Shown one piece after another: positions 26,650 to 33,930 of a stretch of DNA of 34,584 nucleotides. Where the stretch lies: IMG/VR virus record IMGVR_UViG_2734482772_000010, one strand, 5' to 3'. A model generated the notes under the pieces. That model searched no databases, was not told the DNA's origin, and saw only the letters and a program-made list of their open reading frames with translations. The DNA comes from a virus (Duplodnaviria > Heunggongvirae > Uroviricota > Caudoviricetes). The stretch's first letter is position 1. Each line of letters begins with the position of its first letter. A program made the position numbers and the translations under genes.

Positions 26650-28419
26650 ATGACCCCGGCACTGACTGAAAAACTGGTTGAAACAGCCCGCGCGGCACGT
26701 AATGCGGGGCATGGTAAACGCGGCGCAGTATACGACGCTGCCTGTGCTGAACTTGGCATGTCCCGCGCCACTCTGCTGCGCAGGCTGAAGGAGGTCTCTG
26801 TGACTGATAAACGCAAAAAACGCGCCGATGCCGGGCGCAGCGCCCTGACCCGCGACGAAGCCGCGCTGATATCTGCCACACTGCGTGAGGCCACCCGCAA
26901 GAACGGTAAGCGTCTCTATTCCATCGCGGATGCAGTGGAAACCCTGCGGGCTAACGGCTTTATCACCGCAGGCAGAACAGATGAAACCACCGGTGAGTTT
27001 TTCCCGTTGTCTGAAGATGCCATCAGCCGTGCTCTGCGTAACTATGGCCTGCACCCGGAACAACTGGATGCCCCTGCACCACATACCGAAGTGGCCAGTC
27101 TGCATCCCAATCATGTCTGGCAGATTGACGCCTCACTCTGCACGCTTTACTACCTGAGCAATGGACATAAAGGGCTGCAGGTGATGGACAGCGCGAAGTT
27201 CTACAAGAACAAGCCCGCTAACCTTGCCCGTATCGCCAGTGACCGCGTGTGGAGTTACGAGATTACCGACCATGCCAGCGGCTGGATTTACGTTGAGTAT
27301 GTGACGGGCGCGGAATCAGGTGAGAACCTGTGTTCTGTGCTTATCAACGCCATGCAGGAGCGTGGCGGCGCAGACGTGCTACACGGCGTGCCGAAAATAC
27401 TCTATCTCGACCCCGGCTCGGCAAACACCGCGGGTATGACGAAAAACATGTGCCGCTCACTGGGCATCGACCTGATAGCGCACAAGCCGCATAACGCCCG
27501 CGCCACCGGACAGGTGGAAAAGGCGCGTGACATTATCGAACGCAAGCTGGAGCCGGGTCTGAAGTTCCGGCCGGTTCACAGCCTGGAAGAACTCAACGCG
27601 CTGGCCGCGAAATGGCGCAGCCACTTTAACGCCACGGCTGTTCACAGCCGCCACGGTAAAACCCGCACGGATATCTGGCTGAAGATTACTGCTGAGCAGC
27701 TGAAAAAAGCGCCTTCCGTTGAGGTATGTCGTGAACTGGCTGTGGCGGCACCAGAACTCCGCAAAGTCACGCCAAAACTTCGTGTCTCGTTCCGGGGCAC
27801 TGAATTTGACGTATCAACGGTACCGGGCGTACTGGTTGGTGAAAAACTGATGATTACCCGTAACCCATGGCGCAGCGATGTGGCACAGGTGGTTCTGACC
27901 GGTGAGGACGGCCACGAGACGTTCTTCCTGGTCGAAGAGGTCAGAAAGAACGAGTTTGGCTTTGCTGAAGGCGCGGCGGTATTTGGCGAAAGTTACAAAG
28001 CCCTGCCGGAAACCCCGGCACAGATGGCGGCAAAAGAAACTGAAGCGCTGGTTACCGGTACAGACAACGCCGCAGATGCAGCCGCCGCACGCAAGGCGAA
28101 GGCGCTGCCGTTCGGCGGGCGGCTTGACCCGTATAAACATATCGACGACACCACACTTCCGGCCTATATGCCGAAGCGTGGTCAGGCCTCTGACGTACGC
28201 GGGCCGCGCACTGAACAACGTCCCATGACTCATGTGGAGGCCGCGAAAGCCCTGCGCGATAAGTTCAGCGCCGACGGCCTTACCTGGACGCCGGAACATT
28301 ACCGCCAGTTAACGGCACAGTACCCGGACGGCGTACCGGAAGCCGCACTGGATGAAGTCATGGCCACGCTGACCACGCCGGCCCGCAGCAGCGTTATCAG
28401 CATTGTTAACGGCAACTAA
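26650..28419 (+). CDS. DDE transposase (Mu A-like)
   Basis: 589-aa ORF; candidate DDE triad in HVWQIDAS, ILYLDPGSANT and ATGQVEKA with retroviral-integrase-like spacing; followed by AAA+ ATPase gene as in Mu A-B. Confidence 0.8.
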   Translation: MTPALTEKLVETARAARNAGHGKRGAVYDAACAELGMSRATLLRRLKEVSVTDKRKKRADAGRSALTRDEAALISATLREATRKNGKRLYSIADAVETLRANGFITAGRTDETTGEFFPLSEDAISRALRNYGLHPEQLDAPAPHTEVASLHPNHVWQIDASLCTLYYLSNGHKGLQVMDSAKFYKNKPANLARIASDRVWSYEITDHASGWIYVEYVTGAESGENLCSVLINAMQERGGADVLHGVPKILYLDPGSANTAGMTKNMCRSLGIDLIAHKPHNARATGQVEKARDIIERKLEPGLKFRPVHSLEELNALAAKWRSHFNATAVHSRHGKTRTDIWLKITAEQLKKAPSVEVCRELAVAAPELRKVTPKLRVSFRGTEFDVSTVPGVLVGEKLMITRNPWRSDVAQVVLTGEDGHETFFLVEEVRKNEFGFAEGAAVFGESYKALPETPAQMAAKETEALVTGTDNAADAAAARKAKALPFGGRLDPYKHIDDTTLPAYMPKRGQASDVRGPRTEQRPMTHVEAAKALRDKFSADGLTWTPEHYRQLTAQYPDGVPEAALDEVMATLTTPARSSVISIVNGN

Positions 28420-28429
28420 GGAGGGAAAC

Positions 28430-29596
28430 ATGCTGGTACTGAAGCAGCAACTGAAAGAGGCCCGTATTCCACAGGCGGTGGTGGCGAGAGCTGTCGATGT
28501 TTCTGAGGCCACGCTGGCCCAGATTGTGAATCATAACGCGTGGCCCCGCACCCGCCCCGGAGAAGTGCGCCGGCGTCTTGCGTCCTGGCTGGAAAGTCAG
28601 GGGATTGATACAACGAAGAGTTTTGATGCTGTACAGGGCGCGGCCACGCCCCGTACAGCGGGTACCACAGATAAAACGAGCCTCAGTGAGGAAGAGAATA
28701 TGTTACTCAAAAAACAGGTGTTATTTCCAGCAACCAAAAAAGCGTTTGGTCTTTTCCGTGACCCGTTCGCCGACGAAGCCATGCAGGGTTCTGATGATGT
28801 GTTCACCACCCCGGACATTCGCTACGTGCGTGAGGCGCTGTACCAGACAGCCCGTCATGGCGGGTTTATGGCCGTCATCGGTGAGTCCGGTGCGGGTAAA
28901 TCCACGCTGCGCCGCGACCTGACTGAACGTATCAACCGCGAGAATGCGCCGGTGATTGTTATCGAGCCATACGTCATCGCCATGGAAGACAACGATGTGA
29001 AAGGGAAAACCCTGAAGGCAGCAGCGATTGCCGAAGCCATTATCAGTACCATCGCACCACTGGAAAGCATCAGACGCAGTCAGGACGCCCGCTTTCGCCA
29101 GTTGCATCGCGTCCTGAAAGACAGCAGCCAGGCGGGGTTCAGCCACGTTCTGGTGATTGAGGAGGCCCACAGTCTGCCTATTCCGACACTGAAACACCTC
29201 AAACGCTTTTTTGAGCTGGAGTCCGGTTTCAAAAAACTGCTGTCCATCGTGCTGATTGGCCAGCCGGAACTGGCGACAAAACTGTCTGAACGCAATATGG
29301 AAGTCCGTGAAGTCGTTCAGCGCTGTGAGGTGGTCGAACTTCTGCCTCTGGACAATAACCTTGAAGAGTTTCTGACGTTCAAACTGCAACGGGCCGGTAA
29401 ACAACTGACGGACATTATGGACGCCGGCGCAGTGGATGCCATACGTGCCCGCCTGAGCAATCCGGGAAGTCACCGTAAAAACAGGGTCAGCCTGCTGTAT
29501 CCGCTGGCCGTCAGTAACCTGGTGATAGCCGCCATGAATCTGGCTGCTGAAATCGGTGTTCCACAGGTCAACGCTGACGTTGTCAAAGGGGTTTAA
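28430..29596 (+). CDS. transposition ATPase (Mu B / TniB-like AAA+)
   Basis: ORF-track ORF 28403..29596 (TTG) with ATG at 28430 after GGAGGG; Walker A GESGAGKST and Walker B-like HVLVIEEAH. Confidence 0.8.
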   Translation: MLVLKQQLKEARIPQAVVARAVDVSEATLAQIVNHNAWPRTRPGEVRRRLASWLESQGIDTTKSFDAVQGAATPRTAGTTDKTSLSEEENMLLKKQVLFPATKKAFGLFRDPFADEAMQGSDDVFTTPDIRYVREALYQTARHGGFMAVIGESGAGKSTLRRDLTERINRENAPVIVIEPYVIAMEDNDVKGKTLKAAAIAEAIISTIAPLESIRRSQDARFRQLHRVLKDSSQAGFSHVLVIEEAHSLPIPTLKHLKRFFELESGFKKLLSIVLIGQPELATKLSERNMEVREVVQRCEVVELLPLDNNLEEFLTFKLQRAGKQLTDIMDAGAVDAIRARLSNPGSHRKNRVSLLYPLAVSNLVIAAMNLAAEIGVPQVNADVVKGV

Positions 29597-29893: not shown

Positions 29894-30424
29894 ATGGCAA
29901 AAAGTACAAAAGGGGCAAAACGTATCAAGTCCGCAGCGGCACTCTGGGTACCAGGAACACGCGAAGAGGTCATTGAGGGAATCAGACTGCTCGGTGACGC
30001 ACAACGTGAACTGGTCAGGGCTGAAACAGAAATGAATGACGCCATTGGCGATATCACCGCACGTTATGCCCCGCTCACCGAGAGCCTGAAAAAACGCATG
30101 TCAGAACTGCAGTCCGGTATCCAGACATGGTGTGAGGCACACCGTGATGAACTGACCGGCAACGGGAAGGTGAAGTTCGCTAACCTCACCACCGGCGAGG
30201 TACAGTGGAGAAACCGTCCACCGTCAGTCAGCATTCGCGGGGCGGATAATGTTATTGAGCTACTGAGACGTCTGGGGCTTGAGCGATTTATTCGTGTAAA
30301 AGAGGAAATAAATAAAGACGCCATCCTGAATGAAAAAGACGCCGTGAAAAATATTCCCGGTATTACCATAAAAAGTGATATTGAGGATTTTTCAATAATT
30401 CCTTTTGAGCAGGATGTGCAGTAA
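29894..30424 (+). CDS. gam: host-nuclease inhibitor protein Gam (Mu Gam / Ku-like)
   Basis: ORF-track ORF 29678..30424 trimmed to ATG at 29894 after GGAGAAA; KRIKSAAALWVP..ETEMNDAI..WCEAHRDELTGNGKVKFANLTTGEVQWRNRPPSVSIRG..GITIKSDIEDFSIIPFEQ closely parallels Mu Gam as recalled. Confidence 0.85.
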   Translation: MAKSTKGAKRIKSAAALWVPGTREEVIEGIRLLGDAQRELVRAETEMNDAIGDITARYAPLTESLKKRMSELQSGIQTWCEAHRDELTGNGKVKFANLTTGEVQWRNRPPSVSIRGADNVIELLRRLGLERFIRVKEEINKDAILNEKDAVKNIPGITIKSDIEDFSIIPFEQDVQ

Positions 30425-30521: not shown

Positions 30522-30716
30522 ATGATATTTAAATGTATTCAGTGCGAGAGGGATATAACAGCCCTGCGTTTTCACAGCGCCATCGCCGTGATGTCCGGTA
30601 AGTACCACATACCTGCGGTACGCGTCACCCTGATCTGCCCGTACTGCAGCCAGCATTTTTCGGCAGACGTGCCCGTCATGGAATTCTCCCGCCCTGACAG
30701 GGAGGACGCGCAATGA
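30522..30716 (+). CDS. small zinc-ribbon protein, hypothetical
   Basis: 64-aa ORF with two CxxC pairs (CIQC ... CPYC), GAGGAG RBS. Confidence 0.45.
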   Translation: MIFKCIQCERDITALRFHSAIAVMSGKYHIPAVRVTLICPYCSQHFSADVPVMEFSRPDREDAQ

Positions 30717-30985
30717 TTACCCCACAGGAAGCACGACAGCGCACCCGAACCCTTGTTGAACACTATGTCAACGAGTGTGAATGCCGCGACCTCACCGATG
30801 TGAAGCACGTCCTGACAGCGCTAATCAGCATGGCCGCTCAGGCCATTGTGGCGACCAACGGAAAGGAGGCTGCCCTGCAGGTACTGGTGAACACACTCAC
30901 CCACACGGCAAAGCATGAGGTGCCGTACCGGATGGAAACCACTGCAGAAGGCAACCTGAACATCACCGTCGACCGGAAGCACTGA
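30713..30985 (+). CDS. hypothetical early protein, 90 aa
   Basis: ATGA overlap with upstream ORF; no family recognised. Confidence 0.4.
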   Translation: MITPQEARQRTRTLVEHYVNECECRDLTDVKHVLTALISMAAQAIVATNGKEAALQVLVNTLTHTAKHEVPYRMETTAEGNLNITVDRKH

Positions 30986-30994
30986 GGGCGCGGC

Positions 30995-31291
30995 ATGACA
31001 CGGAACACCATACTCACCCGCACCGACCTCTATCGTCTGGCCCTGCAGCGTTTCGGGCCGGATGCACAGGCCCTGAAACTGACAGAAGAGGCCGCTGAAC
31101 TGGCGGCCAGTGCCGCCCGCAACCTGAACGGACAGGGCAGCGAAAGTGACCTCGCGGCAGAGCTGGCAGATGTGGAAATCATGACAGAGCAGTTGCGCCT
31201 TCAGGGGATGGACCGGCTGATTGACTTCCACAAACAGAAAAAACTGGAACGTCTGGCTGCACGACTGGGCGTGATTTACACGAACGAGTAA
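30995..31291 (+). CDS. MazG-like nucleotide pyrophosphohydrolase (small all-alpha type)
   Basis: 98-aa ORF; EEAAE ... ELADV matches the EExxE-N-ExxD metal-binding motif of MazG/HisE-type NTP pyrophosphatases. Confidence 0.55.
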   Translation: MTRNTILTRTDLYRLALQRFGPDAQALKLTEEAAELAASAARNLNGQGSESDLAAELADVEIMTEQLRLQGMDRLIDFHKQKKLERLAARLGVIYTNE

Positions 31292-31305
31292 CCGGGAGGC
31301 ATTCA

Positions 31306-31521
31306 GTGGCTGACATACTCAGGGAAATCACCGCATGGACACTGATTCTTACTGGCCTGGCGACATGCCTCAGTGCGGGGGCAGCCCTGGCTGCCCTGCT
31401 GATACACATAACAACACAGTGGCTATGGGAAAAGCTTAAAGCAGCATACAGCCTGAAAGAACTGTCCGACGCTGTTCGGGCATGGGAACAGCAAAAAAAT
31501 ACCGGAGATACTGAACAATGA
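31306..31521 (+). CDS. small membrane protein, hypothetical
   Basis: 71-aa ORF from GTG preceded by GGGAGG; one hydrophobic segment. Confidence 0.4.
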   Translation: MADILREITAWTLILTGLATCLSAGAALAALLIHITTQWLWEKLKAAYSLKELSDAVRAWEQQKNTGDTEQ

Positions 31522-32036
31522 CAGACCAGAATAAACACATTGAGAAACTGAAAAAGTTGCTGGCGCTGGCCGCATCCGGCAACCCGCACGAGGCCGCTCT
31601 GGCACTGCGCCGTGCCCGTAAACTGATGGATGTTCACGGCATTACACATTCCGACATAGCCATGAGTGATATTGATGAAACCATCAGCCACTACTGGCCG
31701 ACAGGCAGCCTCCGTCCGCCGCGCTACATGCTGGGCCTGATGAACATCATCCGTGAGGCATTTGGTGTTAACTCCATCATTCACCCCGGCACGCATCCGG
31801 GTGTGGGGTTCTACGGCAACCGGGAACGTGCGGCACTGGCTGCATATACCTGGGAAGTGCTGGCCCGCCAGCTGAAAAAGGCGCGTCAGCAGTATGTCAG
31901 TGCACAGAACAAAAGAATAAAAACCGCCACCCGCACCAGCCGTGGCGACCAGTTTGCCGAAGGCTGGGTGCTGGCCGTTATCAGTGAAATACAGACTTTT
32001 GCCCTGACCGATGACGAGCGTGAACTGATGCAGTAG
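31518..32036 (+). CDS. hypothetical early protein, 172 aa (DUF2786-like N-terminus)
   Basis: N-terminal IEKLKKLLALAASGNPHEAALALRRARKLMDVHGI resembles DUF2786 helical domain; ATGA overlap with upstream gene. Confidence 0.5.
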   Translation: MTDQNKHIEKLKKLLALAASGNPHEAALALRRARKLMDVHGITHSDIAMSDIDETISHYWPTGSLRPPRYMLGLMNIIREAFGVNSIIHPGTHPGVGFYGNRERAALAAYTWEVLARQLKKARQQYVSAQNKRIKTATRTSRGDQFAEGWVLAVISEIQTFALTDDERELMQ

Positions 32037-32199
32037 TGGCTGGAACATAAATACCCGCAGACGCAAACCACCAGGGCGCGTAAACCGGGAAGAAGTCGCA
32101 ATGGCGACGCCTCGCGCTATGCGGGGTTTCGAGAAGGGCAGAACGTCAGACTGCACCGCCCGGTCAGTGGGCAGGAACAACAGAAACTGGAGGCGGATA

Positions 32200-32607
32200 A
32201 TGGATAACGACAGCGATAACATTATTCATCTGCTTCAGCCAGATCCTGATGCAGAAGCCCAAAAACTGCTGAATGTGGTTATTTCTGAACGGAAGAATAA
32301 CGAACAAAACCAGTGCCGGCATACCCGGACAACAGTCTCTGAAATCAACCGGACGCTGACCTGTTCACTGTGCGGGTCTGTACTGGATCCATTTGAATTT
32401 ATCCTTGAGCGTGCCCGTAATGCTGAAAATATCGTACATGAAATTAAACGTCTTCATAAAAAGCTGGAAGCACTTCGTGAATCTGTCGCAGTCCTTGAAC
32501 GTGAAGAGAAAAATGCAAAAGCACGATTGCGGAGTGCCAGAACAGCAATCCTCTTTGCGGAAAATGACCTGAAAAATATTGAACTGGAGAAAAAATATAA
32601 TGGCTGA
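32200..32607 (+). CDS. hypothetical protein, 135 aa, Cys-containing with C-terminal coiled coil (AT-rich)
   Basis: ORF-track ORF 32101..32607 trimmed to ATG at 32200 after GGAGGCGG; LTCSLCGS motif; AT-rich codon usage. Confidence 0.45.
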   Translation: MDNDSDNIIHLLQPDPDAEAQKLLNVVISERKNNEQNQCRHTRTTVSEINRTLTCSLCGSVLDPFEFILERARNAENIVHEIKRLHKKLEALRESVAVLEREEKNAKARLRSARTAILFAENDLKNIELEKKYNG

Positions 32608-32804: not shown

Positions 32805-33254
32805 ATGCAGAAAAAACGACTGATTCAGCTTATCCATATTGCCCGTAATGAACTGGGTCTGGATGAAGACACCTACCGCCAGATGTTACAGGGGCTGACC
32901 GGTAAAGCCTCAACCAAAGGAATGGATACCACACAACTAAACTGCGTGCTGGAATCCATGAAAAAGAAAGGCTTTCGGGTTAAACCTGCCAGAAAAGCCA
33001 GCTCCGGTTTACCGCTGGATGACCATCCGCAGTCCAGGAAAATTCGTGCGCTATGGCTTGAAATGGCTGCTGCCGGCATTGTTCGTGACCGTTCAGAAAA
33101 TGCATTAGCGCGGTGGATCAAGCGGGAAACGGGCATCAGCGCCCTGCACTGGCTCAGTACTGAACAGGCAAGCAGTGTTATTGAGAAACTGAAGAAGTGG
33201 CAGCACAGAGCTGCGGGAGTCAAACATGAGCGACCTGAATCAGTTTCGAAGTAA
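32805..33254 (+). CDS. gemA: GemA-like regulatory protein (Mu gp16 family)
   Basis: 149-aa ORF; N-terminus MQKKRLIQLIHIARNELGLDEDTYRQML resembles GemA family; immediately upstream of and overlapping the Mor-like gene, as in Mu. Confidence 0.6.
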   Translation: MQKKRLIQLIHIARNELGLDEDTYRQMLQGLTGKASTKGMDTTQLNCVLESMKKKGFRVKPARKASSGLPLDDHPQSRKIRALWLEMAAAGIVRDRSENALARWIKRETGISALHWLSTEQASSVIEKLKKWQHRAAGVKHERPESVSK

Positions 33255-33612
33255 GGGGCCGGAACTCCTGGTGGAACTGGCACAGCATACCTCTGAGACC
33301 GTTCGCGAGATTATTGATATTGAGCCCGAAGTTGCCGACCAGATTGGTCAGGCCGTCGCGAACCGCATGATGCAGGTCTGGGGCGGGCAAAACGTTTATT
33401 TTCCTATGGGGATGAGATGGAAGATAAGCCAGCGTGACCGTGAAATCTATGAGGCGTTTAACGGACGTAACCACCACGAACTGTCCCGCAGATTCAGGGT
33501 TTCAGTTCCCTGGATTTACAACCTGGTAAAGCGCGTAAGAAAGGAAGAAATCAGCCGGTTGCAGGGGCAGTTATTCGAAGACGATGATGAACCGAATGAC
33601 AGCCGGGATTAA
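33226..33612 (+). CDS. mor: Mor-like transcriptional activator (Mor/C family)
   Basis: 128-aa ORF; GGQNVYFPMG...RDREIYEAFNGRNHHELSRRFRVSVPWIYNLVKRVR parallels the Mu Mor C-terminal DNA-binding region as recalled. Confidence 0.7.
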   Translation: MSDLNQFRSKGPELLVELAQHTSETVREIIDIEPEVADQIGQAVANRMMQVWGGQNVYFPMGMRWKISQRDREIYEAFNGRNHHELSRRFRVSVPWIYNLVKRVRKEEISRLQGQLFEDDDEPNDSRD

Positions 33613-33866: not shown

Positions 33867-33893
33867 CGAGCGTCAATAAATTCCCGGTTTATG

Positions 33894-33930
33894 AAAAGCG
33901 CAATGGATAACCTGTTGCGCTTTTTTTATT
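33894..33930 (+). terminator. intrinsic terminator at end of early operon
   Basis: Hairpin AAAAGCGCAA-(11-nt loop)-TTGCGCTTTT followed by a T7 tract, ~30 nt after the stop of the last early gene. Confidence 0.6.

Follow-up and report, generated by a model that had tools for sequence, protein, structure and literature searches.

What is the small protein that a transposable phage encodes between its Gam and Mor genes, and which function might it serve? Phages often encode small MazG-like enzymes, yet the substrates are known in few cases, among them dGTP/dCTP for the MazG of one cyanophage and (d)GTP for the MazZ of phage S-2L. The question was raised by a viral DNA of 34,584 nucleotides (IMG/VR record IMGVR_UViG_2734482772_000010), the whole of which is called the window below. 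The window represents a BcepMu-like transposable phage whose early region is 95% identical to that of Escherichia phage PhiKM (genus Bcepmuvirus), and the gene in question is annotated as a “hypothetical protein” in the PhiKM record. The first-pass annotation had read its product, a protein of 98 aa, as a MazG-like pyrophosphohydrolase with two acidic motifs, EEAAE and ELADV.

The open reading frame lies at positions 30995–31291 on the + strand, starts with ATG, and encodes the following protein, as read from the window: MTRNTILTRTDLYRLALQRFGPDAQALKLTEEAAELAASAARNLNGQGSESDLAAELADVEIMTEQLRLQGMDRLIDFHKQKKLERLAARLGVIYTNE. It is a real gene with a good Shine-Dalgarno site; a GAGGG sequence (30984–30988, + strand) is located 6 nt 5' of the ATG and overlaps with the stop codon of the preceding gene. 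Two antisense frames, 30821–31231 (−, 136 aa) and 31179–32222 (−, 347 aa), run across the MazG-like gene and the genes next to it. They were set aside as probably non-coding by-products of composition because the + strand genes that they overlap all match PHROG strongly.

The surroundings of the gene are those of a Mu-type early region. The repressor gene (24361–24867, − strand) is divergent, and on the + strand it is followed by a Ner-like regulator (25081–25389, phrog_1368), a Mu-type transposase (transposase A; 26650–28419), and a MuB-like protein (28403–29596). The MazG-like gene had been placed between Gam and Mor, and this arrangement is borne out. Gam (29894–30424; PF07352, E=3.9e-41; phrog_491, E=1.8e-73) stands upstream, GemA (32805–33254; PF06252, E=3.3e-40) and the Mor-family activator of late transcription (33226–33612; PF08765, E=5.2e-41) stand downstream, and all of them are on the same strand. 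Between Gam and the gene there is a zinc-ribbon-like protein of 64 aa with two CxxC pairs (CxxC...CxxC; 30522–30716, + strand; phrog_3401, E=3e-40), a stretch that is annotated on the opposite strand in the PhiKM record. Two places downstream there is a gene with the domains DUF2786 and DUF7168 (31518–32036, + strand; PF10979, E=1.5e-11; PF23771, E=1.6e-23). The gaps that flank the MazG-like frame measure 9 and 14 nt, and the next two genes downstream overlap by 4 nt. A separate observation concerns a DNA methyltransferase gene (22983–23747, + strand; phrog_56, E=1.5e-100), which lies between the late genes and the repressor.

A consensus scan indicated where transcription of this region might begin and end. 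The candidate early promoter TTGACA-16-TACAAT (24788–24815, + strand) is near the sigma-70 consensus, agreeing at 11 of 12 positions, and it lies upstream of the Ner-like gene, overlapping the 5' end of the divergent repressor gene. The terminator-like hairpin (33893–33925, + strand), which has a 14-bp stem and a T-run, is found just past Mor and a small ORF and is the probable end of the operon. Together, the two sites would bracket an early operon of 9 kb. Since they bracket the region and the same scan found no comparable promoter- or terminator-like site on the + strand between them, it is reasonable to infer that the MazG-like gene is co-transcribed with the early operon.

The all-alpha NTP pyrophosphohydrolase superfamily comprises MazG, HisE, and dimeric dUTPase (Moroz et al. 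2005). Membership of the 98-aa protein in this superfamily is well supported, and its sequence suggests that it is best described as an uncurated subfamily that stands outside the curated Pfam MazG and HisE families. A profile search against the MazG and HisE families had been proposed as a check, and its outcome was divided. The curated models rejected the protein: Pfam MazG (PF03819) gave no match even at E≤1, PRA-PH (PF01503) reached 14.5 bits against a cut-off of 21.3, and NCBIfam HisE (TIGR03188) reached 14.3 bits against a cut-off of 42.7. NCBIfam has no model for the family of the protein, for its relatives, or for S-2L MazZ, and none of the 120 listed relatives carries a precomputed Pfam domain. 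The other part of the check favoured the MazG-like reading, which is supported at the level of the superfamily. The protein matched PHROG 2245 along residues 1–97 (E=4.4e-34, 119 bits, profile positions 113–211 of 218), where the name of this group, “nucleoside triphosphate pyrophosphohydrolase”, is an annotation rather than a tested function. Furthermore, 25 of 90 relatives matched Pfam MazG at E≤0.01 (best 2.2e-5), and PRA-PH and MazG-like were matched at the same threshold by 6 and 4 of the 90, respectively.

Alignments with enzymes of known type point the same way. The family profile was aligned by hhalign with the family of the C-terminal domain of E. coli MazG (24 sequences; E=0.016) and with S-2L MazZ (E=0.012), each at a probability of about 3%. 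Both alignments are weak and in register, and they place EExxE and ExxD over the known metal ligands of E. coli MazG and MazZ. The full-length single sequence of E. coli MazG had also been used as a target; it produced a mere 10-column match and was replaced by the C-terminal-domain family. Searches against PDB chains were less informative. The single protein gave chance matches alone in phmmer (IWS1 and EsrB, E≥0.1), a narrow profile of 19 sequences gave no meaningful match, and a deep profile gave marginal matches to Bacillus MazG 5ie9 (E=0.011), iMazG (0.04), YpjD (0.16), and 1vmg (0.39). The top PDB match of the deep profile was 3zta_A (residues 8–76, E=5.8e-4), followed by designed coiled coils. 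The entry 3zta is a Moorella STAS-domain protein, and the matched part is its N-terminal helical domain with an “EIAD” segment. Because this match was absent from the structural searches, it was taken as probable noise rather than remote homology, and together with the designed coiled coils it was treated as a helical or low-complexity effect.

The predicted structure agrees with the all-helical MazG-HisE fold. The AlphaFold model of the monomer, built from the alignment of 90 sequences described below, is confident (pLDDT 94.6, pTM 0.79), and every Foldseek E-value obtained with it was at least 0.17. It replaced a first AF2 model from a narrow alignment, which had a pLDDT of 72 and non-significant Foldseek matches mixed with coiled coils. 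HisE and MazG share one fold (PMC8342488), so a structural match cannot discriminate between them.

The two acidic motifs are present as the first-pass annotation had described them. EEAAE occupies residues 31–35 (nt 31085–31099) and ELADV residues 56–60, with ELAD at 56–59 (nt 31160–31171). The spacing is that of the metal motifs of the superfamily: E-E-x-x-E, 20 residues, and E-x-x-D. Their conservation was followed in an alignment of 90 relatives that are 31–69% identical to the query. E31, D59, and the glutamine Q66 are kept in all 90; E35, E56, R86, G21, and Q25 are each kept in 89; E32 and K83 are kept in 88; and K80 is kept in 72. At position 20, an aromatic residue (W, F, or Y) is found in 89 of the 90 relatives. 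Conservation in 88–90 of 90 relatives, even at identities as low as about 31%, indicates an active-site pattern and not a decayed site, and from these sequences the acidic motif is to be seen as more than a chance feature of an acidic helix. Among the best 150 matches in a library of 1.84 billion proteins, 136 of the 140 new representatives retain EExx[ED]...ExxD. The subfamily has its own signature as well, A-E-E-I-A-D-V-E-I-M-x-E-Q and K-x-x-K-L-x-R-L.

The closest guide to the roles of these residues is S-2L MazZ (PDB 7ody), which is (d)GTP-specific and belongs to the 2-aminoadenine pathway. It is likewise phage-encoded, has about 100 aa, and adopts the MazG-HisE fold. E34, E35, and E38 of MazZ bind Mn2+ ion A, E50 and D53 bind ion B, and E38 and E50 bind ion C; K31 contacts the ligand, and D60 reads the 2-amino group of guanine (PMC8342488). 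MazZ is tetrameric, its pockets are formed at dimer interfaces, and R83 of the partner chain contacts the beta-phosphate (PMC8342488). The hhalign alignment places K28, E31, E32, and E35 of the 98-aa protein at K31, E34, E35, and E38 of MazZ, and E56, D59, and Q66 at E50, D53, and D60. With the conservation, this marks the codons of E31-E32-A-A-E35 (31085–31099, + strand) as the predicted first metal-binding motif, EExxE, and those of E56-L-A-D59 (31160–31171, + strand) as the predicted second, ExxD. The invariant Q66 (codon 31190–31192, + strand) stands 7 residues past D59, just as MazZ D60 stands 7 past D53. By this equivalence, we infer a role for Q66 in the recognition of the base. Base specificity probably differs between the two proteins. 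As an invariant Gln replaces the guanine-specific Asp of MazZ, the sequences argue for one base preference that is common to the whole subfamily and is not that of MazZ. The last helix carries K80, K83, and R86 (codons 31232–31252, + strand), candidate triphosphate-binding basic residues; by analogy to MazZ K76, N80, and R83, they are likely phosphate binders. MazZ differs in having two additional C-terminal beta-strands and in sitting in a purZ/datZ cluster, whereas such a cluster is absent from the window.

Other members of the superfamily are more distant in their architecture. The family profile is in register with the C-terminal catalytic domain of E. coli MazG (EExDE, ExGD, KFER), where K83 and R86 fall on the KFER segment. 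However, E. coli MazG (PF03819) has 263 aa in tandem domains, and the protein of the window is a single domain of 98 aa, so it is not a tandem MazG. Structures of single-domain MazG proteins include SSO3215 of S. solfataricus (1vmg), iMazG of a Vibrio integron (2q5z/2q73), Bacillus MazG (5ie9), and YpjD of B. subtilis (2gta). Identity to these is just 20–26%, and the 98-aa protein is phage-borne, has its own signature, and scores below the Pfam MazG gathering threshold. The MazG of cyanophage S-PM2 type, which is likened here by description, is likewise a pyrophosphohydrolase of MazG type encoded by a phage, and alarmones were at one time suggested as its substrates. It prefers dGTP/dCTP, and it does not bind (p)ppGpp or hydrolyse it (Rihtman et al. 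2019, PMC6850273).

The molecular function of the 98-aa protein is quite probably that of an NTP pyrophosphohydrolase. It would be a single-domain, all-alpha enzyme with the MazG/HisE fold, in which two long kinked helical hairpins from two subunits may form a helical-bundle dimer or a dimer of dimers, as is typical of the fold. Two or three Mg2+/Mn2+ ions would be held at the triphosphate by E31, E32, E35, E56, and D59, and the phosphates would be bound by K80, K83, and R86 of the C-terminal helix. The predicted base pocket is lined by Y13, the aromatic residue at position 20, Q25, and the invariant Q66. The attack of a water molecule would then convert a (d)NTP into a (d)NMP and pyrophosphate. 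Expression from the early operon would make the enzyme present during phage replication by transposition. The likeliest role is probably the trimming or cleaning of the nucleotide pool in phage DNA replication by removing a non-canonical or unwanted (d)NTP. Taken alone, nucleotide-pool sanitation as the biological role is given a little less than an even chance. A clue to the substrate was sought in the domain fusions of longer relatives and in the neighbours, and none was informative.

The relatives show how conserved the neighbourhood is. The close family consists of 46 proteins and is restricted to enterobacterial Mu-like prophages. The profile search of 1.84 billion representatives yielded 10,420 cluster representatives at E≤1e-3, of which 1,922 also passed E≤1e-10; clustered at 50% identity, the wider family exceeds 10,000 clusters, and most members have 85–125 aa. 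The position upstream of GemA/Mor is conserved: 49 of 80 viral loci have a GemA homologue on the downstream side of the MazG-like gene, and MuA/MuB are also present in 27–29 of those 49 contigs. The DUF2786 and DUF7168 homologue is found downstream in 28 of the 80 loci. A second Mu-like prophage, whose MazG-like copy is just 53% identical, has the same gene arrangement. In 30 of the 80 loci, a zinc-ribbon homologue is located 24–581 nt upstream, and its frame always differs from that of the MazG-like gene. Two database proteins that fuse the zinc ribbon to the MazG-like domain (P0026 and P0036) were discounted because the two genes never share a frame in the viral loci; they are probably frameshifts or miscalls, and no Rosetta-stone fusion is left. 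In distant non-Mu contigs, the MazG-like gene occurs within arrays of small early genes. Eleven non-Mu loci (the L058–L088 group, e.g., L085 6289–8784) have an ORF of about 800 aa some 300 nt downstream, which is putatively primase/helicase-like as judged by reading its sequence. This putative association with replication modules favours a role in the nucleotide pool during phage DNA synthesis.

The same chemistry could serve another purpose. The protein might be a counter-defence or host-takeover factor that destroys an alarm or poison nucleotide of the host, such as messengers of the dITP/ITP type or (p)ppGpp-like alarmones. Expression ahead of replication suits the timing of anti-defence, and the gene is located in the “semi-essential”, accessory section of the early operon, the gene content of which differs among relatives. 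Non-canonical NTPs (dITP) serve as immune messengers, and phages attack that pathway (bioRxiv 10.1101/2024.12.20.629578). However, the known phage factor against Kongming is a dNMP monophosphatase and not a MazG-type enzyme (bioRxiv 10.1101/2024.12.20.629578), and the cyanophage MazG that was tested is inactive on (p)ppGpp and prefers dGTP/dCTP (PMC6850273). Literature searches turned up neither a study devoted to a MazG-like gene from a Mu-like phage nor an anti-defence protein of MazG type. The size of the family, together with the putative replication-gene neighbours in non-Mu phages, is better suited by a general role in nucleotide metabolism, and a counter-defence function is regarded as unlikely. 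The bolder version, in which the uncurated subfamily consists of counter-defence enzymes for an immune nucleotide of the dITP/ITP type and Gln66 defines one dedicated substrate across thousands of phages, is held to be improbable. Uracil or unmodified cytosine is kept out of the DNA of other phages by dimeric all-alpha dUTPases and by T4 gp56. A dedicated enzyme resembling a dUTPase or dCTPase with this task could be considered here, as enzymes of that type share the superfamily of the 98-aa protein, many temperate phages carry a dUTPase, and the scanned part of the early region showed no other dUTPase-like gene. Nevertheless, the dimeric dUTPases/dCTPases have a larger “basic module”, at least 150 aa, and dUTPase motifs that the 98-aa protein lacks, and such a dedicated enzyme has only a slim chance of being the correct answer.

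Two further readings concern the enzyme activity itself. The rejection of the protein by the curated MazG and HisE models, its small size, and neighbours that include regulators and proteins of unknown function would be consistent with a catalytically irrelevant helical regulator or binding partner that has retained an ancestral MazG-like shape. The five predicted metal ligands, K83, R86, and Q66 are nevertheless kept in 88–90 of 90 relatives, which makes a non-enzyme very unlikely. A phosphoribosyl-ATP pyrophosphatase of HisE type (PF01503, TIGR03188; structures 1yvw and 6j22) would have the same fold. Both HisE-type models scored below their cut-offs, the 25 relatives that match MazG outnumber the 6 that match PRA-PH, and no histidine-biosynthesis genes lie near the MazG-like gene, so that this identity is hardly credible at all.

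With a pyrophosphohydrolase acting on the nucleotide pool as the preferred reading, the enzyme type is already known and common in phages; what is new is the uncurated subfamily. Although it comprises over 10,000 clusters and its active-site signature is fully conserved, this subfamily is invisible to Pfam and NCBIfam. The gain is an assignment to the superfamily and a predicted map of residues, with E31, E32, E35, E56, and D59 for the metals, K83 and R86 for the phosphates, and Q66 for the base. If the substrate is an immune messenger or a toxic nucleotide, this would be a widespread family of anti-defence enzymes; if the protein is a house-cleaning enzyme, the finding is a routine one.

Some close relatives from other enterobacterial prophages (P0011, P0030, and P0031; 169 aa) are longer at the C-terminus by about 70 aa, …LPRRELLEDWCGAVP…, an extension without counterpart in the window (compare L031 6001–6757). 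Distant relatives are named “NTP pyrophosphatase (non-canonical NTP hydrolase)” or “nucleoside triphosphate pyrophosphohydrolase family protein” in some sources. The gene itself is frequent in E. coli, where it occurs in 621 of 5,426 complete genomes at 90–99% identity; a single genome has as many as 3 copies, and all copies are chromosomal. All eight E. coli records listed, e.g., NC_011750.1 2004317–2004613, bear the RefSeq label “hypothetical protein”.
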